64,000 bases of DNA from Deltaproteobacteria bacterium (GCA_017644045.1 JAEPMI010000011.1:242763-306762); one strand, 5' to 3'. Numbered from the stretch's first letter, positions 1 to 62,819 are shown. Made by a program: numbers and translations. The notes: a model not told the origin generated them from the letters alone.

Positions 1-896
1 CGGCCCGACGCCTTGATGACCTCGGTGATCTCGAAGTCGGTCGTCTTCTGGATCACGACCAGATAGACCGCGAACTTCACGGCGACTTCGACGGCGCCGT
101 ACACGCCGCTCATGAAGGGATAGAAGACCGCGATGGCCGCGAGCGCGAGCGCGCCGCGGTAGAGGTCCTGGCCGAGGGGCTTGCCCTCCTTGCGGTTCTT
201 GAGGACGCCGACGACGTAACAGGACGCCGCGAAGATCACCGCCATCACGCCACCCGGGCCGAAGCCGGAGGCGAAGAGGGTCTCGACCTGGATGACCGCC
301 GTCTGGTTGACGATCGGGTAGAGGATCATCGGGATCGAGGGCGGGATGAGGATGCCCAGCGATCCGGCGCTGGTGAGCAGACCGTGGGTGAAGCGCTCGC
401 CGTAGCCGGCCTTCACCAGGGTGGGCGCCATCATCGCGCCGATCGCGACGACGGTGGCCGGGCTCGAGCCGCTGATCGCAGCGAAGAAGACGCAGGCGAA
501 GACCGCGCTCATCGCCAGGCCGCCGGGGATCCAGCCGATGCAGGCGCGGGCGAAGCCGATCAGCCGCTGACTGATTTCGCCGCGACCCATGACGGCGCCG
601 CTCATGATGAAGAGCGGAACGGCCAAGAGGGTGGGGTTGTCGCCGAGCCCGCGGCTGCGCTCGATGAGCGGGAACTCGTTGGGCTGGCTCGCGCCCATGT
701 AGACCACGAAGGCGGTCACGGTCAGCAGACCGATGATTCCGAAGAGCGGAACGCCGAGGACCGCGGAGCCGATGACGACGGCGGCGATGATGCCGCCCTT
801 GCCCATGAAGGGCAGGCCGATCGCCAGCAGCGCCAGGATGGCGAAGACGGGGATGTTGCCGCGAGGCTTGGCGGGCGCGGGAGGAGCGGCGCTCAT
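1..896 (-). CDS. TRAP transporter large permease (DctM family); 5' part only, gene runs off the left edge
   Basis: Not in the ORF track because it is open-ended. My reverse-strand translation from ATG 896-894 reads MSAAPPAPAKPRGNIPVFAILALLAIGLPFMGKGG..., and later ...SSPATVVAIGAMMAPTLVKAGYGERFTHGLLTSAGSLGILIPPSIPMILYPIV, the conserved DctM core. ATGA start/stop overlap with the upstream gene. Confidence 0.85.
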   Translation of the reverse strand, partial: MSAAPPAPAKPRGNIPVFAILALLAIGLPFMGKGGIIAAVVIGSAVLGVPLFGIIGLLTVTAFVVYMGASQPNEFPLIERSRGLGDNPTLLAVPLFIMSGAVMGRGEISQRLIGFARACIGWIPGGLAMSAVFACVFFAAISGSSPATVVAIGAMMAPTLVKAGYGERFTHGLLTSAGSLGILIPPSIPMILYPIVNQTAVIQVETLFASGFGPGGVMAVIFAASCYVVGVLKNRKEGKPLGQDLYRGALALAAIAVFYPFMSGVYGAVEVAVKFAVYLVVIQKTTDFEITEVIKASG

Positions 897-2152
897 CGGT
901 CGTCCTCCTCGTCTTCGTCGTCATCCGACTCCGACTCCGACTCCGACTCCGACTCCGACTCCGACTCCGACTCCGAGTCTGACTTCGACTCCGACTCCGA
1001 CTCCGACTTCAGGCTTTCGAGCCCGTCCATTGGCGGATGCCGGTCGTCGCCCTGGATCACCGGGTTGTACGGGCCCTGTCGGGCGGCCTTGGCGGCTGCG
1101 AGGTCCTCGTCCTCGGCCGTGCCGTAGGAGCCGCCCATCCAGGTGCTGATCGCCGCGGCGACGAATCGGATGACCGTGAGACCGAAGGCGAGGGGGATGG
1201 CGATGGTCGAGAACCAGTCGGGCACGCCCGTCTGCTCGTACACGCCGCCGTACTCCATCGTGGTCTTGGAGTACTCGTAGCCGAGCCAGGCCATGATCCC
1301 GCAGAAGAACGCCGCCAACAGGAACCCGAGGGCGCTGATGTGCTTCTCGATCTTCTCGGGGACGACCTTGCTCGCGGCCTCCATCCGGATGTGCTTGCCC
1401 TCGTGGGCGCAGATCGAGGCGCCGAGGAAGCCGACCCAGAGGAGCATGATCAGCGAGAGCTCCTTGGACCAGGAGTACTCGTCCGGGAAATAGCTGAGCG
1501 CGAAGGCCGCCAAGAGCCCGCCGGCGACCACCAGCCCGACGATGCGCGTGACCCAGCCGTCTTCCTTCTTGCGGAAGAGCTGCACGCTCCAGGGCACGGC
1601 GACCAGGCCGTAGAGGAGCAGGTAGAAGTACTTGCTCGGGAAGACCCGCATCCGGCGCTCGAAGCCGAACTCGTCGAGGCCCGGCGCCTTCCACTTCATC
1701 AGGAAGCCGAGCCCGGTGATGAGCCCCGCGACCCCCAGGGTGATGAGCACGCTCTTCCCGTCGATCTTCGACTTCTCGCCGCGCGGGCTTCGCGTGGCGG
1801 CGACCCCGAAGAAGAGGACCACCAGCCCCACCACCGAGCTCAGGATCGGTGCGACCGTGTGCTCGAGCATGTGGACGGTGCCCTCGTCGGTGACGCCGAA
1901 GAGGCGCGCGAGGAGCAGGCCCACCCGGCTGTCGGGGGCGGTCAGCCGCCGGTCGACGAAGTCGAGGAAGACCATGACCGTGATCGCCGAAAGGAAGGTC
2001 GCGACGATGGTCTGTTCGACGGCGAAGATCGCGTCGTCGATCTTCCGCAGAAGCCCGAACGGTCCCTCCTTGGGGTCCCCCGAATCGGTCTTCGCCGAAG
2101 CTTCTTCCGACCCGTCCCCGTTCGCGGACTCGGCAGTGGCGGCGGTAGCCAT
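893..2152 (-). CDS. TRAP small-permease-like (DctQ-type) membrane protein, oversized (419 aa), with an acidic Ser/Glu/Asp repeat tail
   Basis: ORF 893..2152. Multiple hydrophobic spans and translational coupling to the DctM gene. The C-terminus SESESESKSDSESESESESESESESESDDDEDEEDDR is encoded by CCGACT repeats. Confidence 0.7.
   Translation of the reverse strand: MATAATAESANGDGSEEASAKTDSGDPKEGPFGLLRKIDDAIFAVEQTIVATFLSAITVMVFLDFVDRRLTAPDSRVGLLLARLFGVTDEGTVHMLEHTVAPILSSVVGLVVLFFGVAATRSPRGEKSKIDGKSVLITLGVAGLITGLGFLMKWKAPGLDEFGFERRMRVFPSKYFYLLLYGLVAVPWSVQLFRKKEDGWVTRIVGLVVAGGLLAAFALSYFPDEYSWSKELSLIMLLWVGFLGASICAHEGKHIRMEAASKVVPEKIEKHISALGFLLAAFFCGIMAWLGYEYSKTTMEYGGVYEQTGVPDWFSTIAIPLAFGLTVIRFVAAAISTWMGGSYGTAEDEDLAAAKAARQGPYNPVIQGDDRHPPMDGLESLKSESESESKSDSESESESESESESESESDDDEDEEDDR
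925..1008. repeat. CCGACT hexamer array (about 12 units, slightly degenerate) inside the 3' end of the DctQ-like CDS
   Basis: The + strand reads ccgactccgactccgactcc... Same core as the four intergenic arrays. Confidence 0.9.
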
Positions 2153-2253: not shown

Positions 2254-3321
2254 ATGGTGGTGAAGGACGGAAGCCGGGTTCTGGTGACGCTCGGCGGAGC
2301 CGTGCTCGTCGCGGCCGGTCTGTACTTCGCTCGGCCGGTGGTCGGCCCCGTGCTCCTCGCCAGCCTCGTCGCGGCCATCACTGCCCCGCTGGTACGATGG
2401 CTGACCGAGCACCGCATCCCGAGCTTCGTGGCGGTCCTGACCGGGCTCTTCGTCGACGGTCTGGTCCTCGCGGCCATCGGAGCCGTCATCGCCAGCGCCG
2501 TGGCGGACATCAGCGCCTCCCAGGAGCGCTACACGATGCACCTCGCCGACGCCTTCGAGGCCGTCGAGCAGTGGACGGTCGCGCTCGGGCTCGACCTCGA
2601 GGCGGAGGTGATCGAGAGCGCGCTCCAGCCCGACGCTCTCATCGACACCTTCGGGGCCATCCTCCAGCGGCTGCTGGGGGTGTTCTCGCAGCTGGTGCTC
2701 CTGCTCCTCCTGGTGGGCTTCATGCTCTCGGAGCTCTCGGAGTGGTCGCGGAAGGTGCGAAGCCTGCTCCACGACCGCGGTGACCTCGAGGCCCTCCGCG
2801 AGGCCGGCGCGGAGGTGCGCGGGTTCCTCCGAGTGAAGTTCGCCACGAGCGCGATCACCGGCTTGTTCGCCACCGGCATCTGCTTCGGCTTCGGGATCGA
2901 TCTCCCGATCCTCTGGGGGCTGACGGCGTTCCTGCTGAACTTCATCCCCAACATCGGCAGCATCATCGCGGCGATCCCTCCCATCGCCATGGCGCTCCTC
3001 CTCCACGGGCCGGGCACCGCGGCCCTCGTGGGCGGCTCCTACCTGGTCGTGAACACGGTCATCGGCTCCATCATCGAGCCGAAGATCATGGGCGAGACGC
3101 TGGGCCTCTCCGCGCTCGTGGTCTTCGTCGGCCTGCTCTTCTGGGGCTGGCTGCTGGGACCGATCGGCGCGCTGCTCTCGCCGCCACTGATGCTCCTGCT
3201 CAAGACCTGGCTCGAGCACACCCAGGACCTGCATTGGGTGGCCGTGTTGCTCGGCTCCGACGTCGACGAGCCGGGTCAGCTACCGCCGGCCCCGGAGCCG
3301 GACTCGGCCGCTCCTCAGTAG
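2254..3321 (+). CDS. AI-2E family transporter (PerM/YhhT-like permease)
   Basis: 355-aa polytopic membrane protein. Its layout and the C-terminal ...GETLGLSALVVFVGLLFWGWLLGPIGALLSPPL... are typical of the family. Confidence 0.8.
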   Translation: MVVKDGSRVLVTLGGAVLVAAGLYFARPVVGPVLLASLVAAITAPLVRWLTEHRIPSFVAVLTGLFVDGLVLAAIGAVIASAVADISASQERYTMHLADAFEAVEQWTVALGLDLEAEVIESALQPDALIDTFGAILQRLLGVFSQLVLLLLLVGFMLSELSEWSRKVRSLLHDRGDLEALREAGAEVRGFLRVKFATSAITGLFATGICFGFGIDLPILWGLTAFLLNFIPNIGSIIAAIPPIAMALLLHGPGTAALVGGSYLVVNTVIGSIIEPKIMGETLGLSALVVFVGLLFWGWLLGPIGALLSPPLMLLLKTWLEHTQDLHWVAVLLGSDVDEPGQLPPAPEPDSAAPQ

Positions 3322-4284: not shown

Positions 4285-5523
4285 GTGTCGGAAGTGTCAG
4301 ACAGTCAGGAGTTTCCCCGAGAGGAGTTGCTCTCCCATTTCGGTGGATACGTCGCGCCGGGGCTCCGCATCGTCCGTTCGCTCGGTGCCGGTGGGCAGGG
4401 CCGGGTCGTGCTGGCGGAGGACGAGCGGCTGGCGCGCTCGGTCGCGGTGAAGTTCCTGGGCGACGAGGAGACGGTGAGCGATCCAGACATCGCCGCCCGG
4501 GTTCGAGTCGAGGCCCGCACGATGGCCAAGGTGCGTCATCCGGCCGTGGTCCAGGTCTTCGACGTCGGGGACGCCGACGGCCGGCCCTACCTCGTCATGG
4601 AGTACATCGAGGGCGAGACCATCGAGGCTCGGCTTCGCGCGCGTGGTCGGCCCTTCGATCTCGCGGAGGCACTCTCGCTGCTCGAGCAGATCGCGCTCGG
4701 CCTCCAGGCCGTGCACGAGGCCGGGCTCGCGCACGGCGACCTCCAGCCGGCCAACGTCCTGATCAGCGCCGACCATCGCGCGCGGGTCGTGGACTTCGGC
4801 CTCGCCTTCCTCTCCGGGGGCACCGCGCATTACATGGCGCCGGAGCTGCACAGCCCGACCATGCCCTCGCGCGACGTGCGTTCCCGGCAGCGGGCCGACC
4901 TCTACGCGCTCGGGGTGGTCGCCTACGAGCTCTTGGTCGGGGAGCGACCCTTCGACGCGCCCGACCGGGCTCGCGTCCTCGCGCAGCACCAGCACAAGGC
5001 GCCGCCCGCCCTGCTCGCGCGGCGCCCGGATCTGCCGGCATCGCTCGGGGCGATCGTCGCTTCCTGCCTCGCCAAGGAGCCGGCCGACCGACCGGCGAAC
5101 GCGGCGGCGGTCGCACAGGAGCTCGGGGACGCCTCCCGTCGTCAGAGCCGTCCGTCGTTCCGGCGGGTGTTGCTGGTCGATGACGACCCTGCCTTCCGGG
5201 CTCTGGTTCGAGCGCACGTCGAGAGTGCGTTCGAAGGCGTGCACGTGTCCGAGGCCGCCGGCGGCGCCGACGCCATCGCGGAGTGTGAGCGGGTGCGCTA
5301 CGACGTGGTGCTCCTCGACCTCCACATGCCCGACGTGAACGGCGTCGAGCTCGCGGGCGCGCTCTGCGCCGAGCCTCACGCGCCGCGGCTCCTGGTCCTC
5401 ACCGGTCAGGGCTCCGCCCGCGACTGGGCACTGCTACATGGGCTCGGCGTCTCCGCGTTCCTCGCCAAGCCGCTCGAGCCCGATGTGCTCCGAGCCGAGC
5501 TCCAGCGCGCGCTCTACGACTAG
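4285..5523 (+). CDS. Ser/Thr protein kinase fused to a C-terminal response-regulator receiver domain
   Basis: Kinase motifs LGAGGQGRV, AVK, HGDLQPANVL, DFGLA and APE. These are followed by a canonical receiver (VLLVDDDP...VVLLDLHMPDVNG...LTGQG...FLAKP). The ORF-track start 4147 overlaps divergent menB, so I chose in-frame GTG 4285. The start is uncertain. Confidence 0.75.
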   Translation: MSEVSDSQEFPREELLSHFGGYVAPGLRIVRSLGAGGQGRVVLAEDERLARSVAVKFLGDEETVSDPDIAARVRVEARTMAKVRHPAVVQVFDVGDADGRPYLVMEYIEGETIEARLRARGRPFDLAEALSLLEQIALGLQAVHEAGLAHGDLQPANVLISADHRARVVDFGLAFLSGGTAHYMAPELHSPTMPSRDVRSRQRADLYALGVVAYELLVGERPFDAPDRARVLAQHQHKAPPALLARRPDLPASLGAIVASCLAKEPADRPANAAAVAQELGDASRRQSRPSFRRVLLVDDDPAFRALVRAHVESAFEGVHVSEAAGGADAIAECERVRYDVVLLDLHMPDVNGVELAGALCAEPHAPRLLVLTGQGSARDWALLHGLGVSAFLAKPLEPDVLRAELQRALYD

Positions 5524-10571: not shown

Positions 10572-12353
10572 ATGAACGTAGGACAAACGCCTACCTTTGG
10601 CGCCCTTTCACGAGCGATCGTGCTATCTGGCGGGACCATGCGGCGCCACGTCCATCGGCACTTTCTCGCCATCGTCGCGATCGCGGTGCTCGTCCTGCCC
10701 GCGGTCGCTCACGCGCAGGGAGTGGAAGCGGCCGCCGAGCCGGACTTCGGGTGGCTGAGTCTGCTGCCTCCGCTGCTCGCCATCGCGCTCGCGTTGGTGT
10801 TGCGGCAGGTGCTGCTCGCGCTCGCCGCGGGTGTCTGGCTCGGGGCGCTCTTCGTCGAAGGCTTCGACCCGCTCGCGGCCACGTTGCGCGCCGTCGATCG
10901 CTACGCGGTCGAAGCGGCGGCGGACGCGGACCACGCGTCGATCCTGATCTTCAGCCTGGCGCTCGGCGGGATGATCGGCGTCATCACCCGGAGCGGCGGC
11001 GCGAGTGGCATCGCGGGCTTGGTCACCAAGCGCGCGAAGACGGCGCCGCGCGGACAGCTCGCGACCTGGTTCCTCGGTCTGCTGGTCTTCTTCGACGACT
11101 ACGCGAACTCGCTCCTCGTCGGTTCGTCCATGCGACCGATCACCGACCGGCTCCGCATCAGCCGCGAGAAGCTCGCGTTCCTCGTCGACGCCACGGCCGC
11201 GCCGGTCTCGTCGATCGCGCTCGTCTCCTCCTGGATCGGCGTCGAGGTCGGCTACATCGGTGAGCAGCTCGCGGCGCGCGACATCGACCTCGATCCCTAC
11301 CTCGCGTTCCTGCAGACGCTGCCCTACCGATTCTACCCGTGGCTGATGCTCTTCTTCGGGCTCCTGCTCGTGCTCAGCCGCCGTGACTTCGGCGCGATGC
11401 GCAAGGCCGAGGAGCGCGCCCGCAAGACCGGTCAGGTGAGCCGCCCCGGCGCGCGCCCCGCGTCCGACTTCGACTCGAGCGCGCTCGAGGAGGCGAGCAA
11501 GCCCCGCGCGCTCCTCGCGATCGGTCCCGTCATCACGGTCGTCGCCGTGGCGCTCTTCGGGATGTACTTCGACGGGCGCGCCACCGTGCTCGAGAACGAC
11601 GGTGTGCTGACGCTCCGCAACATCTTCGGCAGCGCGAGCTCGCTCAAGGGCCTGCTCTGGGCCGCGGTCGCCGGCGGAGCCGTCGCCATCGTGCTCTCGC
11701 TCGTCACCCGAGCGCTCACGCTCACCGACGCCATGGACGCATGGGTCGACGGGATGAAGTCGATGCTCCTCGCGTGCATCATCCTCGTGCTCGCCTGGTC
11801 GCTCGGACGGATCTGCAAGGAGATCGGTACGGCTCAGTACGTCATCCAGCTGATCGGGGACGGCCTCGCGCCCGGGCTGCTCCCGGCGGTGGTCTTCGTG
11901 ATCGCTGCGGCGGTCAGCTTCGCGACCGGGACCTCGTGGGGGACGATGGCGATCCTCTTCCCGCTCGTCGTCCCGCTCGCGGATCACCTGGCGCCCGGCG
12001 AGATGCACATCCTGCTCGGGGCGATCTCGTCGATCCTCGCGGGCAGCGTCTGGGGTGACCACTGCTCGCCCATCTCGGACACGACCATCATGAGCTCGAT
12101 GGCCTCGAGCTGCGATCACGTGGACCACGTACGAACACAGCTGCCCTATGCGCTCTCGGTGGGCTTCGCCGCGCTGATCTTCGGTGAGCTCGGAACGGGT
12201 CTCGGCCTCTACCCGGCGTGGGTCGGCCTGCTGCTCGGCGCCGGCGCGCTCACGGCGCTGGTCTACGTCCTCGGTCGCCGCGTCGACGGCCCCGACGACC
12301 CGCCGCCCGCGGAAGCCGCACCGGAAGCGGAACCCGACGCCGACCCGGCGTAG
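10572..12353 (+). CDS. Na+/H+ antiporter NhaC-family membrane transporter
   Basis: Polytopic ORF with ...FFDDYANSLLVGSSMRPITD... and ...GDHCSPISDTTIMSS..., motifs typical of the family. The true start may be ATG 10638 (MRRHVHRHF..., signal-like). Confidence 0.7.
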   Translation: MNVGQTPTFGALSRAIVLSGGTMRRHVHRHFLAIVAIAVLVLPAVAHAQGVEAAAEPDFGWLSLLPPLLAIALALVLRQVLLALAAGVWLGALFVEGFDPLAATLRAVDRYAVEAAADADHASILIFSLALGGMIGVITRSGGASGIAGLVTKRAKTAPRGQLATWFLGLLVFFDDYANSLLVGSSMRPITDRLRISREKLAFLVDATAAPVSSIALVSSWIGVEVGYIGEQLAARDIDLDPYLAFLQTLPYRFYPWLMLFFGLLLVLSRRDFGAMRKAEERARKTGQVSRPGARPASDFDSSALEEASKPRALLAIGPVITVVAVALFGMYFDGRATVLENDGVLTLRNIFGSASSLKGLLWAAVAGGAVAIVLSLVTRALTLTDAMDAWVDGMKSMLLACIILVLAWSLGRICKEIGTAQYVIQLIGDGLAPGLLPAVVFVIAAAVSFATGTSWGTMAILFPLVVPLADHLAPGEMHILLGAISSILAGSVWGDHCSPISDTTIMSSMASSCDHVDHVRTQLPYALSVGFAALIFGELGTGLGLYPAWVGLLLGAGALTALVYVLGRRVDGPDDPPPAEAAPEAEPDADPA

Positions 12354-16345: not shown

Positions 16346-16750
16346 GCGACTCCGACTCCGACGCCGACTCCGACTCCGACGCCGACTCCGGCGCCGACGC
16401 CGACTCCGACGCCGACTCCGACTCCGACGCAGACGCCGACTCCGACTCCGACGCCGACTCCGACGCCGACTCCGACGCCGACGCCGACTCCGACGCCGAC
16501 TCCGACGCCGACGCCGACTCCGACGCCGACTCCGACGCCGACGCCGACTCCGACGCCGACTCCGGCGCCGACGCCGACTCCGCCGCCGACGCAGACTCCG
16601 ACAGCGACCACCGACCACCGAGAGCCGACTCCCGAGAGCCGACAGCCGACTCCCGAGAGCCGACTCCCGAGAGCCGACCGCCGACAGCCGAGAGCCGACT
16701 CCCGAGAACCAACCGACGACTCCGACGCCCGAGTGGACGAGAGCCGACTC
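16346..16750. repeat. CCGAC[T/G] hexamer array (about 40 units, with a 30-nt higher-order unit) decaying into ~14-nt units
   Basis: Read directly from the sequence. tccgacgccgacgccgactccgacgccgac occurs three times at 16471-16560. ccgagagccgactc-type units run from 16610 to 16750. Confidence 0.95.
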
Positions 16751-16786
16751 TGGCCTGAATCGACGGGCTGGGTGTAGCTTGCGGCC

Positions 16787-19075: not shown

Positions 19076-19681
19076 ATGTGGAATCGAGTTGGACCCGCCT
19101 TGGTGGTCCTCGGTCTGGTCAGTGGGATGGTGTGGGTGTCGGCCGAGACGGGCGAAGCCCAGCGGCGCGGTCGGCGCGCTCGAAACCAGGGGCCGGTGGC
19201 CTTCTTCGCCGGTGCTTCCGAAGAGCAGACCATTCGCGGTGACACCAAGCTCGACTTCCGCGCGGTGTCCGAAGGCTCGACCGGCTGGGACCCGCGCGCG
19301 GGTCACTTCACCGTGCCCGCCGATGGTGCGTACCACTTCGATCTGGGCGCTCGGATCACCCACGCGCCGCCCTCGCTCAGTTGCGCCTACACCTTCACTC
19401 TGGTGAAGAAGCGCGGCGGGAACACGGTGGCCAGCGTCGAGATGCTGGTGCTCGAGCAGAGCACGGTCGACGTCGGGGACACGGGGCGCGGCAACCCGGT
19501 GATGCGACAGACGTCTTGGCGGCTGCGTGACTCTGCGGGCGTGACGCTGCCGCTGAAGGAAGGCGACATTCTCGAGGTGCACGCCGAACCGAGCATTCAG
19601 CTCTGCGGCGGACAGGCGCGGCTGACGCCGCTATCGGGCAGCCAGGTGGTGTCGTTCTTCTCGGGCCACCGGGTGCGCTGA
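19076..19681 (+). CDS. Secreted C1q/TNF-like jelly-roll domain protein
   Basis: Signal peptide, then VAFFAG...FRAV...GWDPRAGHFTVPADGAYHFD...L.EGD...FFSGHRV, which matches the C1q-domain landmark pattern. GGAGAGG Shine-Dalgarno lies before the ATG. Confidence 0.55.
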   Translation: MWNRVGPALVVLGLVSGMVWVSAETGEAQRRGRRARNQGPVAFFAGASEEQTIRGDTKLDFRAVSEGSTGWDPRAGHFTVPADGAYHFDLGARITHAPPSLSCAYTFTLVKKRGGNTVASVEMLVLEQSTVDVGDTGRGNPVMRQTSWRLRDSAGVTLPLKEGDILEVHAEPSIQLCGGQARLTPLSGSQVVSFFSGHRVR

Positions 19682-19687
19682 CGGCGT

Positions 19688-20812
19688 TCAGTCGTCGTCG
19701 CCGGCTGGCGGGATCCGGCCCGCGGGGCCCGGGTCTTCGCGCGTGCCGGCGATGCCCACCTTGAGGCGCTGCATCACGGCGTCGTGCTGACGCGCCTTGT
19801 ACGCCGCGTGGCTGGCGTCGCCGATCTCGTTGCCCTGGTCGGTCTCGTGGTCGAGGACCTGGAACTCGGTCTGCACGAAGATCACGCGACCGAGCGCCCA
19901 CGCGGCCGGGGGCGCTTCGCTGAGGAGCTCTTCCGGGAGGCGAACCGGCATGTCCGCCACGAAGTGCACGACCCGGTAGGCCTTGGAGGTGAACATGTTG
20001 TCCACCAGCTCGCGGCCTTCGTCCTCGAAGTCGATGCTGAGCTGGAGATCGGGCAGGTGCTTCTTCAGGGCCGGGAGCGACTCGCAGTGGCTCCGGAAGT
20101 GCACCAGCGTGTTCGTGGACTCGCAGGGGATCACGTAGTTGAACGGGAAGACCTCGCGCATGAGGTAGTTCAACATGGGGAACACGTCGTCGACGGATCG
20201 GGTGACGATGCGGAAGCGCAGCTTGTCGTAGATCTGCGCGGCGCTGACCTCCTGCTTGGAGAGCAGCTTCGTGTAGAGCGAGTCCTTGTTCTTCCGGCCG
20301 CCGATGAACTCGACCACCGGGAAGCCGCGGGCGAGGGCGTTGCCGATGACCCGGTAGACCTTCTGCTCCACCAGGTGGAAGACCTCCTCGTCGGAGGTGG
20401 GGAGCATGAAGAGCAGCTCCCGCGCTTCCAGGTGATGAATGATGTGCATCACCTTGAGGATCGTGCAGGCGCAGAGCTGGCGGTGGCCCTTGGCGGACGC
20501 CAGCTCGAGCAGGCCCGCGACGTCGAGGGCCGCGACCGGCTTCGGGATGGGGAAGTCGAACTTCCGTCGGAGGTAGCTGATGGCGGAGTGCTTCACCGCC
20601 TCCGAGCGGGCCCGGTCGACAGGCTCGTTCAGATCGATCTCGTGGGCGTGGAGGAAGCGGTCGACCTCGGCCCGGCTCTTGAAGTTCAGCCGGTGCCAGT
20701 CGATGACCGATCCGCCGCGTAGGAGGAGGCGGATGCCCTCCAGCTCCGCGAGCGTGCAGTCGCGAAGCTCGGCCAGCTCGTCCTGGGGGCCTTCGCTCGG
20801 TCGAGCCGTCAT
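19688..20812 (-). CDS. RelA/SpoT-like nucleotidyltransferase-fold protein of unknown function
   Basis: Synthetase-type motif series: GGRKNKDSLYTKLLSK (RxKxxxSxxxK), DKLRFRIVT (DxxxxRI), YRVVHFV (YxxxH), and VQTEFQV...HAAYKARQ (ExQ...HxxYK). Has a ~170-aa N-terminal extension. Confidence 0.55.
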   Translation of the reverse strand: MTARPSEGPQDELAELRDCTLAELEGIRLLLRGGSVIDWHRLNFKSRAEVDRFLHAHEIDLNEPVDRARSEAVKHSAISYLRRKFDFPIPKPVAALDVAGLLELASAKGHRQLCACTILKVMHIIHHLEARELLFMLPTSDEEVFHLVEQKVYRVIGNALARGFPVVEFIGGRKNKDSLYTKLLSKQEVSAAQIYDKLRFRIVTRSVDDVFPMLNYLMREVFPFNYVIPCESTNTLVHFRSHCESLPALKKHLPDLQLSIDFEDEGRELVDNMFTSKAYRVVHFVADMPVRLPEELLSEAPPAAWALGRVIFVQTEFQVLDHETDQGNEIGDASHAAYKARQHDAVMQRLKVGIAGTREDPGPAGRIPPAGDDD

Positions 20813-23685: not shown

Positions 23686-25976
23686 CCGCGGAGCGACAAC
23701 GGCGGCGGCTTCCGCTGCCTCCCCGCCTGGCTCGCGTCCTGAAGGAGCGGGCCACGCGGGTGTCGCTCGCCCTCGCGCTCCTGCTCGGGCTCGGGCTCAG
23801 CTTCAATCGGCTCTCCGGGGTCCCCGGCGTCGAAGGCGCGCTCGCGCTCGGCGTGCCGCTGCCCTTCCTGGCTGCGATCCTCTCGTCGCGCGCCGTGGTG
23901 CGCGCGCGAGGTGGCGAGGGGCCGGGCGGGGCGCGCGATCTGATCCTGGACGCAGCGCTCCGCGGCGCGCTGCTCTGGCTGGTGCCGAGCCTGGTGCTGG
24001 CGGCGAACATGGTCTGGGTCCGCGTCTGCGAGCCAGGCCTGGGGCTCCTCTTCCTGGTGCTCGGTCCGTTCGTGGGCGTTCAGCTCGCGAGCCTGGCGGC
24101 GCTTTGGGTCGCGGTCGTGGTGCCACGCTTCGTGACCTTCGCGGCGATCCTGGTCCCGCTCGGCGGCGTGCTCTGGGGGCTCGGCGAGTTCTGGGCGACC
24201 CCTGCCATCTTCGTCTTCTCCCACACCGCTGGCTGGTTCCCGGGGACGCTCTACGACGTCGGCCGCGCGTTCCCCTTCGCGCTCGTGACCTATCGCGCGC
24301 TGACGCTCGTGTGGATCGCGGTGGCGGTGCTCGGCGTGTTGGCGGTCCGACCGGACAGCGCGCGCGCGGGCCGGCCGCGTTGGGCGCTGCTCGCGTTCGC
24401 GCTCTTGCTCACGGCCTGTGGTGTGGTGGGCTGGGCGAATGGGCCCGAGCTCGGTCACCGCAGCACCGTGGCCGCGATCGACGAGGCGCTCGGCAAGCGG
24501 GTGGTGAGCGAGCGCTGCGTGGTGCACCTCCCGCGCGAGGTCTCGCCGCACGATGCGTGGCGGCTCGCCCGCGACTGCGACTTTCGGGTCCACCAGGCCG
24601 AGCAGGCGCTCGCGGTGGAGCAGCGCGCCAAGGTGCACGCCTTCTTCTATCGGTCCGCGCAGGAGAAGGAGCGCTGGATGGGCGCTGGCCGGACCTACAT
24701 CGCCAAGCCCTGGCGCGACGAGGTCCACTTGCAGCTCTCCGGCTGGCCGCACCCGGTGCTGGCCCACGAGGTCGTGCACGCGGTCGCGGCGCGCGCCGCG
24801 CAGGGGCCCTTCCGCGTCTCCGGCCAGCTCGGCGGCTGGCTTCCGGACCCGGGGCTCATCGAGGGCACGGCCGTGGGCATCGACTGGCGCGAGCGCGACG
24901 GCATGGACCCGCACATGTGGTCGCGCGCGATGCGCGACCTCGAGCTCCTTCCGCCGCTCGACCGATTGCTGGGCCTGAGCTTTCTGCAGCTCCCGCACAG
25001 CGTCGCCTACAGCGGCGCCGGCTCGTTCACCCGCTTCTACCTGGATCGCTACGGCTCGGAGAAGCTGCGGCAGGCCTACCACGACGGCGACTTCGGGGGG
25101 CCGGTCGGCAAGACGCTGGAGGAGCTCGACGCCGAGTGGCAGGCGGTGCTCGACGAGCAGGTACTCCCCGAAGGCACGCTCGAGCTGGCGAAGCTCCACT
25201 TCGACCGGCCGAGCATCTTCGAGACCACGTGTCCCCACCGGCTCGCTGCGCTGAAGGGCGAGCTCGGTGGCGATCTGGCCGCAGGCGACGATCGGCGCGC
25301 CCAGGCCACGTGCGAGGAGATTCTGTCCATCGATCCCGGCAGCGCGACGACGCGCGCGGCGCTCGTCGGCGCGCTCGCGCGCGACGGACAGCAGGATGTC
25401 GCGGTCGAGCAGCTGACCCTGCTCGAGGGGGCGCCGCTGACCTTGGTGGCCAGCGCCCGCGCGTCGATGGCCGACGCCAAGTGGCTCGACGGAGACAGCG
25501 AAGGCGCCGCCGCGATCTACCGCGAGCTCATGGACGCCCCGCAGTCCGAGGCCTCGCGGCGGCAGCTCCAGGTGAAGCTGCTGGCCATCGAGGCGGGCGG
25601 ACGGCAGGAAGCGATCCTGCGCGGCCTCTTCCTCGGCACCAGCGGCCGCGGCTCGAGCGTCCCCGCGGTGGTCCACTTCGCGCACCTCCTCGACGGCATC
25701 CGGGAGGACGGCCTCGGCAGCTACCTCGCCGCCCGCCAGCTGCTCGACGCCGCATCGCGCCCCGATCTCGCGCTTCCGATGCTCGCGAGGTCACGCGAAC
25801 GCGGGCTTCCCTCCCCCGAGCTCGAACGGGAGGCGCTTCGCTTTCACGGGCGCGCGGCCTACGGGGCTCATCACTGGGACGAGTCGCGGGAGCTCTGGCA
25901 GGAGGCGGTGAGCGATCCGTTGCTGCAGCACGAGGCGGAGGACTGGTTGGCCCGGCTCGACTGGCGCGAGGACTGA
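23682..25976 (+). CDS. Polytopic membrane protein with an HExxH...EG (MA-clan-like) metallopeptidase motif and C-terminal TPR repeats
   Basis: TTG 23682 forms a TTGA overlap with the lon stop. About 8 TM helices. LAHEVVHAV...[11 protein letters not shown]-like C-terminal half. The ORF-track start 23496 lies inside lon. Confidence 0.6.
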
Positions 25977-26003: not shown

Positions 26004-26131
26004 GTCGGCGTTCGGCGTCGGCGTCGGCGTCGGAGTTCGGCGTTCGGCGTCGGAGTTCGGCGTCGGTGTTCGGCGTCGGTGTTCGGCGTCGGAGTTCGGC
26101 GTCGGAGTTCGGCGTCCGTGTCGGACTTCGG
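26004..26131. repeat. GTCGG-core 6/7-nt array (reverse-complement orientation of the CCGAC family)
   Basis: gtcggcgttcggcgtcggcgtcggcgtcggagttcggcg... Starts 28 nt after the stop of the TPR/peptidase gene. Confidence 0.9.
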
Positions 26132-27319: not shown

Positions 27320-27602
27320 GTCGGAGCTCGGAGTCGGCCGTCGGAGCTCGGAGCTCGGAGTCGGAGTTCGGAGTTCGGAGTCGGCCGTCGGAGTTCGGAG
27401 TTCGGAGTTCGGAGTTCGGAGTTCGGAGTCGGACTCGGAGTTCAGAGTCGGAGTTCGGAGTCGGCGTCGGCGTCGGCGTCGGAGTTCGGAGTTCGGAGTC
27501 GGACTCGGAGTTCAGAATCGGAGTTCGGAGTCGGAGTCGGAGTCGGAGTCGGCGTCAGAGTCGGAGTCGGCGTCCGCGTCGGAGTCGGCGTCCGCCGTCG
27601 GT
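27320..27602. repeat. GTCGG/TTCGG-core 6/7-nt array (units GGAGTC, GGAGTTC, GGAGCTC, GGCGTC)
   Basis: gtcggagctcggagtcggccgtcggagctcgg...ggagttcggagttcggagttcgg... Ends 34 nt before the stop of the FAD-oxidase gene. Confidence 0.95.
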
Positions 27603-47970: not shown

Positions 47971-48438
47971 GTGCCGCGCGCGCAGTCGGCCGGGTTGGTG
48001 ATGGTCCGGGTCGGTTCGCCGACCCGCTATCTCCTCGTTCACCCGGGCGGTCCCTACTTCCGCAAGCGAGAGGACCACGTGTGGTCCATACCCAAGGGCC
48101 TGCCCGAAGACGGCGAGTCGTTGCTCGACTGCGCGCGCCGAGAGATGCGCGAAGAGACCGGCTACGAGCCACCACTCGAGGGGTACGTCGAGCTCGGCTT
48201 CGTTCGTCAGAGTCGCAAGGACGTCCACGCCTGGGCGTTCCGCGACGACGACTGGGACCCGGCGACGCTGGTGAGTCAGCCCTTCGAGCTGGAGTGGCCC
48301 CCGAAGTCCGGCAAACGCGAGTCGTTCCCCGAGGTCGACCGCGGCGCGTTCTTCACCCTCGAGGAAGCAGGCCCTCGGGTCGTGAAGGCCCAGCTGGAGC
48401 TACTCGAGCGTGCCGCCGCGCGGCTGGGCGACCTGTAG
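47971..48438 (+). CDS. NUDIX hydrolase
   Basis: Nudix box GLPEDGESLLDCARREMREETG. N-terminal ...SAGLVMVR is typical of one subfamily. GTG start. Confidence 0.85.
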   Translation: MPRAQSAGLVMVRVGSPTRYLLVHPGGPYFRKREDHVWSIPKGLPEDGESLLDCARREMREETGYEPPLEGYVELGFVRQSRKDVHAWAFRDDDWDPATLVSQPFELEWPPKSGKRESFPEVDRGAFFTLEEAGPRVVKAQLELLERAAARLGDL

Positions 48439-48440
48439 AG

Positions 48441-48764
48441 CCGACTGCCGACTCCGACTCCGACAGCCGACTCCGACAGCCGACTCCGACAGCCGACTCC
48501 GACAGCCGACTGCCGACTCCGACAGCCGACTCCGACTCCGACTCCGACTCCGACTCCGACTGCCGACTGCCGACAGCCGACAGCCGACAGCCGACAGCCG
48601 ACAGCCGACAGCCGACAGCCGACTCCGACTGCCGACAGCCGACTCCGACTGCCGACAGCCGACAGCCGACTCCGACTGCCGACGACCGACAGCCGACCAC
48701 CGACTCCGACGCTGAGACAGCCGACTGCCGACAGCCGACGCCGACGCCGACACCGACACCCGAC
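48441..48764. repeat. CCGAC-core array mixing 6-nt (CCGACT) and 7-nt (CCGACAG/CCGACTG) units; fills the whole convergent intergenic gap
   Basis: Starts 3 nt after the NUDIX TAG and ends at the base before the stop of the minus-strand SGNH gene. Seven consecutive CCGACAG units at 48570-48618. Confidence 0.95.
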
Positions 48765-50153
48765 TCACTCCGCGTCGACGACCGGCCGGTCGATCACCAC
48801 CGTGACCGACTTCTCCTGCTCGGGGCTCAGCTCCACGACCAGGTGGTGCACGCCTCGCTGCAGGGTCACCTCGAGGTCTTCCTCGCCGCGGGCCGCGCAG
48901 GCCATCGGGTCGGCCTCGGCGCCGAGCAGGAACGTGCGCGCCCCTTCGTCGGCGAAGACGTTCACTTCGAGCCGGGTCTCTTCCTCGACCCGAATGCGGT
49001 AGACCCGCTCCGCGCCTCCGGAGGGCTCGGCGCCCTCGCACCCGTAGGCCGTCAGGGCGCTTCCTTCGGAGGGAACGAAGCGCTCGCCGAAGGGGACGCG
49101 CGTCAGGTGGAGCGGCGCCTCGGCCGTGCCCTCGCCTGCCATCTCGCGGGGCTCCGGGTCGGGGGCGCCTTCGCCGGCGACCACGGTCCGGCGCAACCGA
49201 TCGAGCAGCTCGAGGGTGCGCAGGTTCCGCTGGTTGCTGCCGTGCTGGAGCCCTTCTTCGCTCATCACGCAGGCGCGGCCACGACCGCCCTCGAGCAGCG
49301 TGTTCGGGTGCACTCCGTCTCCGGCGAGCCCGCGCCCCGGGAGGGCGTCCTGGGCGACGTAGAAGTCGAGGTAGGGCACCTGCCAGGCCTGGGCGATGGC
49401 ACGGCTGATCCGGTTGTAGCGCTTGGCCCAACCGTCCATCTCGGGATCGTCGCCCCGAGGTGAGGTCGCTCCGACGATCGGGATCAGCCCCCGGTCGAGC
49501 AGCTGGTCCAGCATTCGCTCCAGTCGCTCGGCGAAGCTCCGGGGGCGGCGCGCCTGGACGTCGTTGCCGCCGAAGAAGACCAGCGCGAAGCGTGCGTCGG
49601 TGGCGCGTGCCTCCTGGAGCGCGCGCGACGGGCGGCCCGCGAGCCCCTGACGCAGCGACCAGCCGACCTGGGCGGCGGTGCTCTCGCGCCCAAAGGGGTT
49701 GGAGCCGGCGGCGTTGCCGCGACGGAAGAACTCGAGGGTCTCGACGAGCTCGTCGTGGTCCGCGAGGTCCAGGTTGTCGCCGTCGTAGGCGAAACAGTGG
49801 AGGAAGGCCCGGCTCTCGACCGACGAGCCCCCGAGCTTGATGAAGACGTCGTCGCGGTGCTCGCGGCCCTCGCGCAGGGCGCGGAGCCGGGCGACCATCG
49901 CCGGAGTCAGCGCCGAGTGGATGGCCGGCGCGACCCACGTGAGCGCCGGGTCCGGCGGTGGCTCGGGGATCAGCCGGACCTCTTCGGCCGGCTCCGGCTC
50001 GGGGTCCGCCGTCGCCCGTGCCGGCCGCTCGTCGCCGGTGGGCTCGGCCATCTCTGCAGTCTCCGGTTCGGGAGGCGTGGCGCAGGGCGCGAGCGCACTG
50101 ACGGCCGCGACACTCAGCCCGAGGGCCAACGCTGCGTGCACCGGAGACGACAC
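48765..50153 (-). CDS. SGNH/GDSL-like hydrolase lipoprotein with a C-terminal beta-sandwich-like domain
   Basis: Lipobox LAPC. FFGGNDV and GDGVHPN blocks. Confidence 0.55.
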   Translation of the reverse strand: MSSPVHAALALGLSVAAVSALAPCATPPEPETAEMAEPTGDERPARATADPEPEPAEEVRLIPEPPPDPALTWVAPAIHSALTPAMVARLRALREGREHRDDVFIKLGGSSVESRAFLHCFAYDGDNLDLADHDELVETLEFFRRGNAAGSNPFGRESTAAQVGWSLRQGLAGRPSRALQEARATDARFALVFFGGNDVQARRPRSFAERLERMLDQLLDRGLIPIVGATSPRGDDPEMDGWAKRYNRISRAIAQAWQVPYLDFYVAQDALPGRGLAGDGVHPNTLLEGGRGRACVMSEEGLQHGSNQRNLRTLELLDRLRRTVVAGEGAPDPEPREMAGEGTAEAPLHLTRVPFGERFVPSEGSALTAYGCEGAEPSGGAERVYRIRVEEETRLEVNVFADEGARTFLLGAEADPMACAARGEEDLEVTLQRGVHHLVVELSPEQEKSVTVVIDRPVVDAE

Positions 50154-51290: not shown

Positions 51291-51836
51291 ATGAACCGAC
51301 CCAACGACGAGAGCACGGCGACGACGAGCGGCACTGCGCCCGCGCGCCTCGACAAAGACCTGGTAGCGGAGCTCGAGCCCACCCTGATGCGCTACGCCCG
51401 GCGCCGGGTGGCCACCGAAGAGCAGGCCCGCGACCTCGTGCAGGAGACCTGGCTCGCGGCCCTGGGCGGCATCGACCGCTTCGCCGGCCGATCGAGCCTG
51501 CGGACCTGGCTGGTCAGCATCCTCCGACGGAAGATCGTGGACTCCCACCGCCGGAAGCGTCCGAAGGTCACCTTCGAGGAGCACCACACCCCGCCGGTCG
51601 ATCCGCCCCGCGAGCGTTTCGATGACGCCGCGGCCCTCCAGATGATCCACGAGGAGCTCCCGAGCCTCCCGCGCCGCGAGCGCCAGGCCGTGACCTTCGT
51701 CGACGTCGAGGGGCTCTCCCGCGAGGAGGCCGCGAGCCGGATGGGCGTGAAGCGCACCGCGCTCCGCGTCATGCTCCACCGCGGTCGCCGTCGGCTGAAC
51801 GACAAGCTCAGCGCCGCCGGCCACGCCTTCAGTTAG
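51291..51836 (+). CDS. ECF-type RNA polymerase sigma factor
   Basis: Region 2 (ARDLVQETWLAAL...FAGRSSLRTWLVSILRRKIVDSHR) and region 4 (LPRRERQAVTFVDVEGLSREEAASRMGVKRTALRVMLHRGRRRL). Confidence 0.85.
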   Translation: MNRPNDESTATTSGTAPARLDKDLVAELEPTLMRYARRRVATEEQARDLVQETWLAALGGIDRFAGRSSLRTWLVSILRRKIVDSHRRKRPKVTFEEHHTPPVDPPRERFDDAAALQMIHEELPSLPRRERQAVTFVDVEGLSREEAASRMGVKRTALRVMLHRGRRRLNDKLSAAGHAFS

Positions 51837-56382: not shown

Positions 56383-58266
56383 ATGCTCGAACCCAGCTCC
56401 GTGACCGACCCAGCACCCTCCGACGCCGTCCAGCGAGCGCTCGAGGAGCGCTTCGGGCTCGAGGCCTTCCGACCCTGGCAGCGTGAGGCGATCGACGCGC
56501 TCCTCGAGGGACCGAAGCGGGTGCTGGTCGTGGCGCCGACGGGTGGTGGAAAGTCGCTGACCTACCAGCTGCCCGCGGTGGTCCTCGAGGGGACCACCGT
56601 GGTGGTCTCGCCGCTGATCGCCCTGATGGAGGACCAGGTCCGCGGGCTGCGCGAGCGCGGCATCGAGGCGACCTACCTCGCATCCACGCTCTCGCGCGCC
56701 GAGGTCTCGGAGCGCGAGCGGGGCATCGCCCAGGGGCGCTACCAGCTGGTCTATGTGGCGCCGGAGCGGCTGGGGAACCGCTGGCTGGTCGAGCTGCTGC
56801 GCAAGGTCGCGCCGCCGCTCATCGCGATCGACGAGGCGCACTGCATCAGCCAGTGGGGCCACGACTTCCGGCCGGACTACCTGCGACTCGGTGAGCTCGT
56901 TCGGGAGCTCGACCCGCGCCACGTGCTCGCCTGTACCGCGACCGCCACGCCGCTGGTGCGCGACGAGATCCTCGAGCGGCTGGACCTCGGCTCGGCCGAC
57001 GTGGTGCTCCGCGGGTTCGCGCGACCGAACCTGCACCTCGAGGCGGCGCCGGTCGACTCCAAGAAGGCCCGGATGCGCGCGCTCCACGATGCGCTGGCGG
57101 ACGCGATCGGCCCGCCTGGCGAGCCGACGAGCGGAGCCGCGATCGTCTACACGGCCACCCGCAAGGAGACCGAGAAGGTCGCCCAGACCTTGGCCGAGCG
57201 TGGCTACGACTGCTCCGCCTATCACGCGGGGCTCCCGAGCGAGGAACGCGCCGAGGTGAACGCGCGCTTCGGCGCCGGCGAGCTGGACGTGGTCGCCGCG
57301 ACCAACGCCTTCGGCATGGGCATCGACCGACCCGACATTCGTCTGGTCGTGCACGTGCAGGCGCCGGGCAGCATCGAGGCCTACTACCAGGAGGTCGGTC
57401 GCGCGGGGCGTGACGGGCTGCCCGCCAAGGGCCTGCTGATGAGCGCCAGCCGCGACCTCGGCCTCCGGCGCTTCCTGATCGAGTCGGGGACCTCCAACAC
57501 GGAGCACGTCGAGCGGCAGTGGTCGCTCTTCCTCGACCTGATGCGCTACGTGGAGGCCGGGAGCTGTCGGCACGACTTCATCCTCCGCTACTTCGGCGAC
57601 GAGGAAGAGATCCTCGGCGGCTGCGGCCACTGCGATGTCTGCGCGCGCATGGACGAGGGCGACGCGCCCGCGGTCACGCCGGCGGACGAAGAGCTGGTGC
57701 GCAAGGCGCTCGCTGGGGTCGCCCGCACCAAGGGGCGGGTCGGCATGCGCTCGGTCGCCGACATGCTCGCGGGGCGCGGCGGCCAGAAGCTCAGCCGCTG
57801 GGGCTTCGACCGCCTCAGCACCTACGGACTGCTCGAGGGCGAGTCGAGCGAGTGGCTCGTGGCGCTGCTACGACGGTTGGTGACGGCGGGCTACGCGACG
57901 ATCAGCGGTGACCGCTACCCGCTCGTGGGCATGACGCGGCTCGGTTGGGAAGTGATGAAGGGCGAGAAGCCGGTGCGGGTGATCGCGCCGAGCAAGACCC
58001 GCCCCCGGCGGAAGAAAGGCAGCCGGCCCGATCGACCCGCGGGCGCCGAGGGCGATCTCTTCGACGCGCTCCGAGAAGCGCGGCGCGCGCTCGCGAAGGA
58101 GCACGGCGTACCGGCGTACGTCGTCTGCAGTGACCGCACGCTCCTCGAGATCGCGTCCGTCGCGCCCTCGGACGCGGCGTCGCTCGAGGACGTCTACGGG
58201 ATGGGTCCCTCGAAGGTCGCGCGCTTCGGCGACGCGCTCCTCGCGGTCGTCGCCCGGCACTCCTGA
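56383..58266 (+). CDS. recQ: ATP-dependent DNA helicase RecQ
   Basis: APTGGGKSL, DEAHCISQWGHDFRPDY, TATAT, QEVGRAGRDG, a Zn-binding Cys cluster (CRHD...CGHCDVC), and a C-terminal HRDC domain. Start trimmed to ATG 56383. Confidence 0.9.
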   Translation: MLEPSSVTDPAPSDAVQRALEERFGLEAFRPWQREAIDALLEGPKRVLVVAPTGGGKSLTYQLPAVVLEGTTVVVSPLIALMEDQVRGLRERGIEATYLASTLSRAEVSERERGIAQGRYQLVYVAPERLGNRWLVELLRKVAPPLIAIDEAHCISQWGHDFRPDYLRLGELVRELDPRHVLACTATATPLVRDEILERLDLGSADVVLRGFARPNLHLEAAPVDSKKARMRALHDALADAIGPPGEPTSGAAIVYTATRKETEKVAQTLAERGYDCSAYHAGLPSEERAEVNARFGAGELDVVAATNAFGMGIDRPDIRLVVHVQAPGSIEAYYQEVGRAGRDGLPAKGLLMSASRDLGLRRFLIESGTSNTEHVERQWSLFLDLMRYVEAGSCRHDFILRYFGDEEEILGGCGHCDVCARMDEGDAPAVTPADEELVRKALAGVARTKGRVGMRSVADMLAGRGGQKLSRWGFDRLSTYGLLEGESSEWLVALLRRLVTAGYATISGDRYPLVGMTRLGWEVMKGEKPVRVIAPSKTRPRRKKGSRPDRPAGAEGDLFDALREARRALAKEHGVPAYVVCSDRTLLEIASVAPSDAASLEDVYGMGPSKVARFGDALLAVVARHS

Positions 58267-58270
58267 CGCG

Positions 58271-60322
<2,052 letters not shown>

Positions 60323-62498: not shown

Positions 62499-62819
62499 AT
62501 GGCTGACACCGTTCGCGCGTCTCACATCCTCCTCATGTACCAGGGCTCGGCCCGCTCGACCGCCAGCCGGTCGAAGGACGAGGCCCAGACCCAGATCGCT
62601 CAGATCAAGCAGCAGCTGGACGGCGGCGCCGACTTCGCCGACCTCGCTCGCCAGCACTCCGACTGCCCGAGCGGGCAGAAGGGCGGCGACCTGGGTGAGT
62701 TCGGCAAGGGCCAGATGGTCAAGGCCTTCGAGGACACCACCTACGCCCTGCAGCCCGGTCAGACGAGCGACGTCATCGAGACCGACTTCGGCTACCACAT
62801 CATTCATCGGACGGGCTGA
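62499..62819 (+). CDS. Parvulin-type peptidyl-prolyl cis-trans isomerase
   Basis: ASHILL...FADLARQHSDCPSGQKGGDLGEFGKGQMVKAFE...TDFGYHIIHR. Start trimmed to ATG 62499. Confidence 0.85.
   Translation: MADTVRASHILLMYQGSARSTASRSKDEAQTQIAQIKQQLDGGADFADLARQHSDCPSGQKGGDLGEFGKGQMVKAFEDTTYALQPGQTSDVIETDFGYHIIHRTG

Follow-up and report, generated by a model that had tools for sequence, protein, structure and literature searches.

Long simple sequence repeats (LSSRs) with units of 5–11 nt, above all heptamers, are over-represented in large GC-rich bacterial genomes, and slippage has been proposed as their origin (Mrazek 2007, as far as quoted in PMC4679880 and PMC4692102). The heptamers GGGAATC and GGGGA(C/T)T of Xanthomonas and Nostoc form a genome-specific family located within 50 bp of stop codons, mainly between co-oriented and rarely between divergent open reading frames (ORFs); length and sequence of these repeats differ among close relatives, and no function has been established for them (Rehm et al. 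2015, PMC4692102). The Nostoc repeats are the short tandemly repeated repetitive sequence (STRR) heptamers first reported in Calothrix (PMC4692102). In marine Beggiatoaceae, cyanobacteria and Bacteroidetes, TAACTGA repeats of 2–6 copies lie immediately in front of start codons in most cases and have been suggested as binding sites of a translational regulator (MacGregor 2015, PMC4679880). Here we describe a tandem array of units with a CCGAC core at positions 48441–48764 of a 64-kb DNA stretch from a Deltaproteobacteria bacterium (GCA_017644045.1 JAEPMI010000011.1:242763-306762; termed the window in the following), located between the convergent genes of a NUDIX hydrolase and an SGNH/GDSL hydrolase. 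As a bacterial long simple sequence repeat, the array falls into a class that has been described but is poorly understood. It stands out by its mixture of 6- and 7-nt units, its exceptional length, its rapid expansion and its changes of orientation. We consider it likely that it represents a lineage-specific, hypervariable repeat, i.e. a micro- or minisatellite with a 6–7-nt unit, that expanded in place by slippage and is tolerated at the junction.

Parsing of the 324 nt at every CCGAC core resulted in 48 units comprising 28 heptamers, 18 hexamers, one 15-mer and one cut final unit. CCGACAG (n=17), CCGACT (n=15), CCGACTG (n=8) and CCGACG (n=2) are accompanied by CCGACGA, CCGACCA, CCGACA, CCGACAC, the 15-mer and the final unit entering the stop codon, each of which was found once. 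Tandem Repeats Finder (TRF) reported the array at 48440–48751 with a period of 7, 46.9 copies and a score of 319, and alternative periods of 13 and 20 over 48439–48766. The plus strand is the C-rich one (A 72, C 148, G 80, T 24), and CCGACNCCGAC occurs 70 times in the window in comparison to 1.5 expected occurrences, a number reached by 0/100 dinucleotide shuffles. The initial annotation had described a mixture of hexamers and heptamers that fills the convergent gap, starts just after the NUDIX TAG, ends at the SGNH stop and contains seven successive CCGACAG units. Unit parsing confirmed each of these points, with two bases (AG) as the sole non-array part between the NUDIX TAG and the first unit (Table 1). 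The part adjoining NUDIX is homogeneous, while the end adjoining SGNH contains the variants CCGACGA, CCGACCA, the 15-mer, two copies of CCGACG, CCGACA and CCGACAC, and is presumably the older part of the array. Given the 13- and 20-nt blocks, the homogeneous fivefold and sevenfold runs, and the degenerate versus homogeneous ends, we infer that replication slippage and unequal exchange shaped the array.

Table 1. Coordinates of the CCGAC arrays, their internal structure and neighboring features in the 64-kb window.
Feature	Position	Strand	Remarks
Target array, 48 CCGAC-anchored units	48441-48764	C-rich strand = +	TRF, parsing
Homogeneous part adjoining NUDIX, 36 units	48441-48678		CCGACT, CCGACTG and CCGACAG only; parsing
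Higher-order block (CCGACT CCGACAG) x4	48454-48505		Source of 13-nt period; TRF, parsing
(CCGACT) x5 run	48526-48555		Parsing
(CCGACAG) x7 run	48570-48618		Parsing
Higher-order block (CCGACT CCGACTG CCGACAG) x2	48619-48658		Source of 20-nt period; TRF, parsing
Degenerate end adjoining SGNH, 12 units	48679-48764		Mostly variants; parsing
NUDIX hydrolase, PF00293	47971-48438	+	TAG at 48436-48438
SGNH/GDSL hydrolase, PF13472	48765-50153	-	Stop at 48765-48767, right after last CCGAC
Array 1, (TCCGAC) x14	925-1008		Hexamers only; read in frame on minus strand as (SE)n, C-terminal tail of DctQ
Array 2, CCGACT/CCGACG hexamers, then CCGAGAG/CCGACTC/CCGACAG heptamers	16347-16758		412 nt; 18- and 30-nt higher-order periods; starts 6 nt past stop of sigma-54 activator gene, ends 29 nt before ATG of next gene
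Array 3, 13-mers (GTCGGC/GTCGGA + GTTCGGC)	26004-26130	G-rich strand = +	28 nt past stop at 25976
Array 4, AGTCGG hexamers mixed with AGTTCGG heptamers	27320-27601	G-rich strand = +	Ends 35 nt from stop (27636) of minus-strand ALO/FAD oxidase gene
23S-rRNA-IVP / four-helix-bundle gene, PF05635	26366-26698	+	Small; convergent with the following gene, between arrays 3 and 4
23S-rRNA-IVP / four-helix-bundle gene, PF05635	26761-27099	-	Small; between arrays 3 and 4
DctQ homologue, tail	893-1008	-	(SE)n plus D/E-rich acidic tail
Cysteine-rich repeat protein, 506 aa	46437-47957	+	CGDGxC...C..C..DCG.C modules
Other convergent gene junctions	3315-3321, 5520-5523, 19681-19688, 51829-51836, 58266-58271, 62800-62819		Usually overlap or gap <10 nt

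The same junction was compared across 12 orthologous loci on the contigs of SGNH homologues. In all relatives compared, NUDIX and SGNH have homologous C-terminal ends, and the stop codons on either side of the array are thus intact and orthologous. A contig of the same strain (L001, SGNH 100% identical) carries the same array with one CGTCGG unit missing and a different order of interior units, and breaks inside it; this unit indel indicates that the array is polymorphic. At 91% SGNH identity (L210, GCA_964462035.1), the stops are separated by a 27-nt spacer, TTGGGGAG-CCGACT-CCGACC-GCCCCCT, with only two units, CCGACTCCGAC, on the SGNH-sense strand, i.e. opposite to the window. The SGNH-sense strand also carries the at least 20 CCGACT/CCGACTA units of L203 (87%), again opposite to the window, and the contig ends in the array. 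A 25-nt spacer without array was found in L204 (85%). The array is also missing in L002/L003, L207 and L205/L206 (82%, 80% and 78%, respectively), some of which have other neighbors instead of NUDIX. L004 (77%) exhibits approximately six CCGACT/CCGACG units that overlap the stop codon and are followed by a 23S-rRNA-IVP gene, and in a metagenome-assembled genome of Sandaracinus sp. (L005–L007, 70%) the stop codons are 5 nt apart without an array. Copy number at the orthologous junction thus varies from 48 units in the window to two at 91% and none at 85% and 70% identity. A conserved element was rejected on the basis of the 12 loci, the array being absent, tiny or inverted in close relatives. 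An assembly artefact was ruled out, as independent contigs from other samples (L001 and L203) enter a CCGAC array at the same junction.

These comparisons did not support the proposal of the initial annotation that the array replaces a hairpin terminator between the two genes, since the stop codons of relatives are only 5, 25 or 27 nt apart. The stop-to-stop gaps of the eight other clean convergent pairs in the window range from −20 to +71 nt, and six of the eight pairs overlap or are at most 6 nt apart, as judged by a crude gene call based on the GC content of third codon positions. The 326-nt gap between NUDIX and SGNH is therefore an outlier made by the array itself. The tiny gaps in the relatives together with the abutting convergent pairs of the window leave no terminator-bearing spacer to be replaced; the array was recently inserted into, or expanded within, a gap that had been nearly empty. 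Where convergent genes overlap or lie less than 10 nt apart, as is usual at the other junctions listed in Table 1, their termination signals must be inside the opposing gene. A scan for intrinsic terminators revealed no terminator-like site at 48.4–48.8 kb, and a hairpin followed by a U tract was not found, with 24 T on the plus strand and no T run on either strand. Rfam at the gathering threshold yielded no match in the whole window, and nothing in this analysis shows a dedicated transcription stop signal for the array.

The array is not the only one of its kind in the window. Five arrays with a CCGAC/GTCGG core (Table 1) sum up to 1,229 nt, i.e. 1.9% of the 64 kb including the target array. 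With at least five arrays in 64 kb, the CCGAC family is recently inflated in this species. Arrays 2 to 4 and the target array are located 3, 6, 28 or 35 nt from the stop codon of the neighboring upstream gene, and none of the five arrays of the window is found between divergent gene pairs. All heptamer-containing arrays are intergenic, and the sole intragenic one, array 1, is composed of hexamers only and read in frame, by which a coding filter becomes visible. The assumption of the initial annotation that heptamers free the family of coding constraint is supported by this finding and by the irregular distribution of the 28 heptamers among the 18 hexamers of the target array. The orientation in relation to the upstream gene is mixed. 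The transcript carries the C-rich strand in case of arrays 2 and 4, L203, L004 and L210, and the G-rich strand in case of arrays 1 and 3 and the window SGNH gene. An orientation bias with respect to the upstream gene was therefore rejected. A bias by replication direction was likewise rejected, because both array orientations are present inside 64 kb and the GC skew was uninformative.

The genome harboring L210 also provided a contig (L208) that is syntenic across arrays 2 to 4 and encodes an ALO protein with 95% identity, so that our comparison covers 64 kb of the window genome and 42.7 kb of this region in the nearest relative. At the site of array 2, approximately five degenerate units (CCGACG CCGAGAA CCGAGAA CCGACC...) correspond to the 412 nt of the window, and at the site of array 4 four heptamers (GACTCGG TTCTCGG TCGTCGG CTCTCGG) were identified beside the ALO stop codon. 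The 42.7 kb of L208 contained no stretch with three or more perfect CCGAC units in a row. Taken together, the orthologous sites hold proto-repeats in L208 and L210 and greatly expanded arrays in the lineage of the window, with the orientation kept at only one of the three sites between the two genomes. A short TCGGTTC/TCGGGG heptamer array was noted at L208 4259–4299, where a p450 gene and a Ser/Thr kinase gene are separated by a divergent promoter region. For the corresponding part of the window, TRF listed nothing comparable.

We therefore interpret the array as the result of expansion in place, and infer that it lacks a selected function. A proto-repeat of one or two CCGAC units in a gap of up to about 27 nt between the convergent stops would have been the origin, and growth would have proceeded by in-place replication slippage plus unequal recombination acting on single units as well as on the 13- and 20-nt multi-unit blocks. 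At a 3'–3' junction without promoter or coding constraint, such an array would be tolerated and frame-breaking heptamers would be allowed. As a consequence, both genes would gain a repetitive 3' region of approximately 320 nt, which is predicted to be C-rich and unstructured for NUDIX and to form a G-rich hairpin for SGNH. Strand-specific effects on the transcripts are probably by-products and not the reason for the existence of the array.

Several points weigh against this interpretation. All long arrays of the window share one core (CCGAC/GTCGG), a motif dominance that general slippage alone does not explain. The location of the arrays 3–35 nt past upstream stops is compatible with a function at 3' ends. 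CCGACAG/CTGTCGG exhibits the largest strand asymmetry in RNA folding among GC-matched heptamers (top 0.2%), which could hint at selection on the transcripts. The hairpin propensity of the G-rich units as single-stranded DNA is moderate (9th–31st percentile of GC-matched units), and hairpin formation can therefore not be claimed as the reason why this motif expands. Hairpin-prone DNA was accordingly dropped as a cause of motif specificity, being at best a weak contributor. Furthermore, the comparison spans only 64 kb of the window genome and 43 kb of the nearest relative, and the short versions in the relative could be due to assembly collapse. We consider such a collapse unlikely because the short versions consist of degenerate, non-identical units in unique context.

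A functional explanation would be a selected, strand-asymmetric insulator, in which the C-rich NUDIX RNA loads Rho and the G-rich hairpin of the SGNH RNA pauses the polymerase and/or protects the 3' end; this extends the idea of the initial annotation. The initial annotation had assigned the C-rich strand to the NUDIX transcript and the G-rich strand to the SGNH transcript and saw in this a natural test of strand-specific function. The assignment is correct, and the two strands are very different as RNA. The C-rich (plus, NUDIX-sense) RNA has a predicted minimum free energy of −65.2 kcal/mol versus a shuffle mean of −77.4 kcal/mol (z = +3.0), i.e. it folds more weakly than 100/100 shuffles. 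The G-rich (SGNH-sense) RNA reaches −213.6 versus −153.9 kcal/mol (z = −12.6), corresponding to approximately one long predicted G-C/G·U hairpin. Folding with DNA parameters gave the same direction (z = −5.0 for the G-rich and +4.2 for the C-rich strand), and all five window arrays show the same RNA strand asymmetry. In addition to CCGACAG, CCGACTG belongs to the top 3% of GC-matched heptamers with respect to RNA strand asymmetry, and GCCGAC is the maximum among hexamers. This ranking of the units results from the pairing of a G+T-rich strand with a C+A-rich one. Descriptors of Rho utilization (rut) are a C>G bubble of at least approximately 80 nt and YC dimers (Y, pyrimidine) at a spacing of 9–13 nt (Nadiras et al. 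2018, PMC6144790). On the plus strand, C amounts to 45.7% and G to 24.7%, 65 YC dimers are present, [(YC)N9-13]6 can start at 47 sites, and the C>G bubble is continuous from 48426 to 48845. The sequence-level rut features, namely the C>G bubble, YC dimers spaced 9–13 nt and a largely unstructured predicted RNA, were thus found on this strand, and the C-rich RNA looks like a Rho loading site. The position of the arrays just past stop codons and the lack of an intrinsic-terminator-like site near the junction are also in line with an insulator.

Nevertheless, we regard such a selected insulator as unlikely. Relatives with the two genes 5–27 nt apart lack the array and evidently function without it, and the other convergent pairs of the window overlap or abut with no array between them. 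With respect to the upstream gene the array orientation is mixed, and at one and the same junction it is reversed between close relatives. Moreover, the C-rich strand is not G-poor, the hairpin is not followed by a U tract, and similar C>G windows are common in the genome: the array has a mean C>G skew of 0.29, with the 95th and 99th percentiles of 78-nt windows at 0.24 and 0.32, respectively, and a skew of this size is also attained by many coding windows. A broader version, in which the whole CCGAC family acts as a lineage-specific bidirectional terminator or insulator that colonizes 3' ends and lets the two strands meet different fates, or alternatively reflects a motif-specific, genome-wide process of repeat expansion, appears distinctly improbable to us. 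An expansion process of this kind could be reflected by the increase from 2–6 to 48–65 units between genomes with 91–95% identical orthologues and by the orientation flips, comparable to eukaryotic repeat-expansion loci.

At the DNA level, the arrays might provide multivalent sites for a CCGAC/GTCGG-specific protein (nucleoid-associated, partition-like or recombination-stimulating) or represent a tandem Chi-like hotspot motif. This would account for the single 5-nt core that the five arrays have in common in spite of their otherwise different units, for the share of approximately 1.9% of the window and for the recurrence of (CCGACWG)n arrays in many phyla. We judge this very improbable, because no candidate protein was found, nothing in the flanks points to a dedicated system, the copy number at orthologous sites ranges from 2 to approximately 65 with the arrays being dispensable there, and both the orientation and the 6/7-nt spacing are irregular. 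Even less credence can be given to templated or element-borne addition of units, either by a stuttering enzyme of the reverse-transcriptase or telomerase-like type or by co-insertion with 23S-rRNA-IVP cassettes. The irregular 6/7-nt lengths around a fixed core resemble stuttering synthesis, either array orientation is found at the same junction among relatives, two IVP genes lie between arrays 3 and 4, and the short array of L004 lies beside an IVP gene at the SGNH stop. However, no IVP gene is located near the target array or arrays 1 and 2, and neither conserved sequence in the array flanks nor target-site duplications as a sign of a mobile element were seen by eye. The higher-order blocks and the polarity from degenerate to homogeneous units are typical of in-place slippage, and proto-arrays of 2–6 units are present at orthologous sites of the relative. 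Translation of the array into a repetitive peptide, or its origin as an assembly artefact, has a negligible probability: although the array contains almost no stop codons and long ORFs pass through several frames, the 6/7 mix gives no consistent peptide, the flanking genes stop at conserved positions and independent assemblies reach the array, so that a coding repeat was rejected for 48441–48764 and holds only for array 1.

Regarding the host and the flanking genes, the GC content of the window is 69.5%, and its best protein matches are to a marine Sandaracinus-like myxobacterium. MBO6939261.1 and MBO6939262.1 match the NUDIX and the SGNH protein, respectively, with 100% identity; the SGNH ORF encompasses 462 aa, with gene callers placing the start codon later. 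Upstream of NUDIX, the cysteine-rich repeat protein (Table 1) derives from 72- and 144-nt DNA tandem repeats and has no Pfam match; its gene is kept beside NUDIX in L210 and beside SGNH in L002. The DctQ homologue with the array 1 tail is the small permease of a tripartite ATP-independent periplasmic (TRAP) transporter, and its TGA stop and the ATG of the permease gene that follows share the sequence ATGA. Each of the two window IVP genes has a conserved upstream element (..GGGGTTGACT..CGAGGGCGGGGGGG..), which also precedes the IVP gene located right after the SGNH stop in L004 (8883–9222). Only a remnant of an IVP gene was found in L208 (approximately 11455–11640), the relative with the 95% identical ALO. 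The IVP gene together with its upstream element resembles a small cassette that inserts at the 3' ends of genes in the manner of a mobile element.

To assess the wider distribution of the motif, (CCGACWG)3 was scanned for in one genome per species, resulting in at least 120 loci. The matches listed belong to Acidobacteriota, Planctomycetota, Streptomyces, Bacteroidota (low-GC), cyanobacteria, Chloroflexota and others, and the (CCGACWG)n arrays among them consist of heptamers alone and comprise 5 units in the median and 31 at most. Among the same listed matches, (CCGACTG)n and (CCGACAG)n are often found inside longer NNNACTG arrays such as CTGACTG, CCCACTG, CCTACTG and CCAACTG. These NNNACTG heptamers share the ACTG core with the published TAACTGA repeats, and there may be a pan-bacterial heptamer repeat class worth a separate study. 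Mixed 7+6 arrays in metagenomes yielded 75 matches, nearly all with 3–5 units; long arrays of this mixed type are therefore rare. Just two others were found, both in metagenomes, namely (CCGACT CCGACGG)n at L131 7–140 and (CCGACT CCGACTG)n at L193 67–115. Each is located at the end of a contig, and arrays of this type thus disrupt assemblies elsewhere, too. A literature search for CCGAC arrays or myxobacterial families of simple sequence repeats found nothing specific.

Long-unit simple sequence repeats of large GC-rich bacterial genomes are a neglected class, of which the array is a striking further example. It documents growth from 2–6 to 48–65 units between relatives with 91–95% identical orthologous proteins, and mixed 6/7-nt arrays that derive from one 5-nt core, occupy approximately 2% of 64 kb and break short-read assemblies. 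The natural series of proto-repeat, expanded array and inverted array is material for studying the birth of bacterial satellites, and the unlike RNA strands allow a clean test of repeat effects on termination or mRNA stability. If the arrays were functional strand-specific terminators, they would constitute a new build of termination signal in organisms poor in canonical hairpin terminators.

By comparison with known repeat classes, the array belongs with the LSSRs. Repetitive extragenic palindromic (REP) units are imperfect palindromes of approximately 20–40 nt, often in inverted pairs and linked to RAYT transposases. REP units and bacterial interspersed mosaic elements (BIMEs) have in common with the array that they are repetitive extragenic DNA at 3' ends whose RNA hairpins are able to stabilize the upstream mRNA, but the window units are direct repeats of 6–7 nt in one orientation, and only the G-rich strand folds, via G·U pairs, whereas the C-rich strand does not. 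A REP/BIME element was therefore rejected. A CRISPR array was rejected as the 6–7-nt units abut without spacers, and a phase-variation (contingency) repeat as both neighboring genes reach their stop codons before the array.

The TAACTGA repeats resemble the CCGAC family as abundant intergenic heptamers of one motif with a patchy phylogeny, and CCGACTG has an ACTG core, too; the window array, however, is located at gene 3' ends and has 48 copies. The rut regions (PMC6144790) are similar to the NUDIX-sense strand in the sustained C>G bubble, the predicted lack of structure and the YC dimers in the 9–13-nt linker range. They differ from the window strand, which is not G-poor, not conserved, and in opposite orientation after other genes. 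The Xanthomonas and Nostoc heptamers share with the arrays described here that one motif family occupies many intergenic sites near stop codons, between co-oriented or convergent ORFs, and in a variable manner. In contrast to the CCGAC family, they contain tracts of G3-4, fold into G-quadruplexes and are found preferentially as four units. CCGAC units have GG/CC doublets only, and thus no canonical G-quadruplex but a predicted G-C/G·U hairpin, and their arrays are far longer and mix two unit lengths. A G-quadruplex-type heptamer repeat or STRR was rejected on the basis of the 6/7 unit mix and GG as the longest G run; the proximity to stop codons between co-oriented or convergent ORFs agrees with the definition of this type.

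Like the LSSRs, the array consists of head-to-tail units of 6–7 nt beyond chance expectation in a GC-rich genome, is variable among close relatives and belongs to a mostly intergenic family. Coding DNA tolerates only units in multiples of three in both cases, and slippage is the proposed origin of both. The array differs from described LSSRs in mixing hexamers and heptamers around a fixed 5-nt core, in having 48 to approximately 65 units compared to a median of 5 and a maximum of 31 for (CCGACWG)n elsewhere among the matches listed, and in the occurrence of several arrays of one core family within 64 kb. Every testable property of a long simple sequence repeat, namely short tandem units, occurrence beyond chance, non-coding heptamers and variable copy number, was found in the array at 48441–48764.

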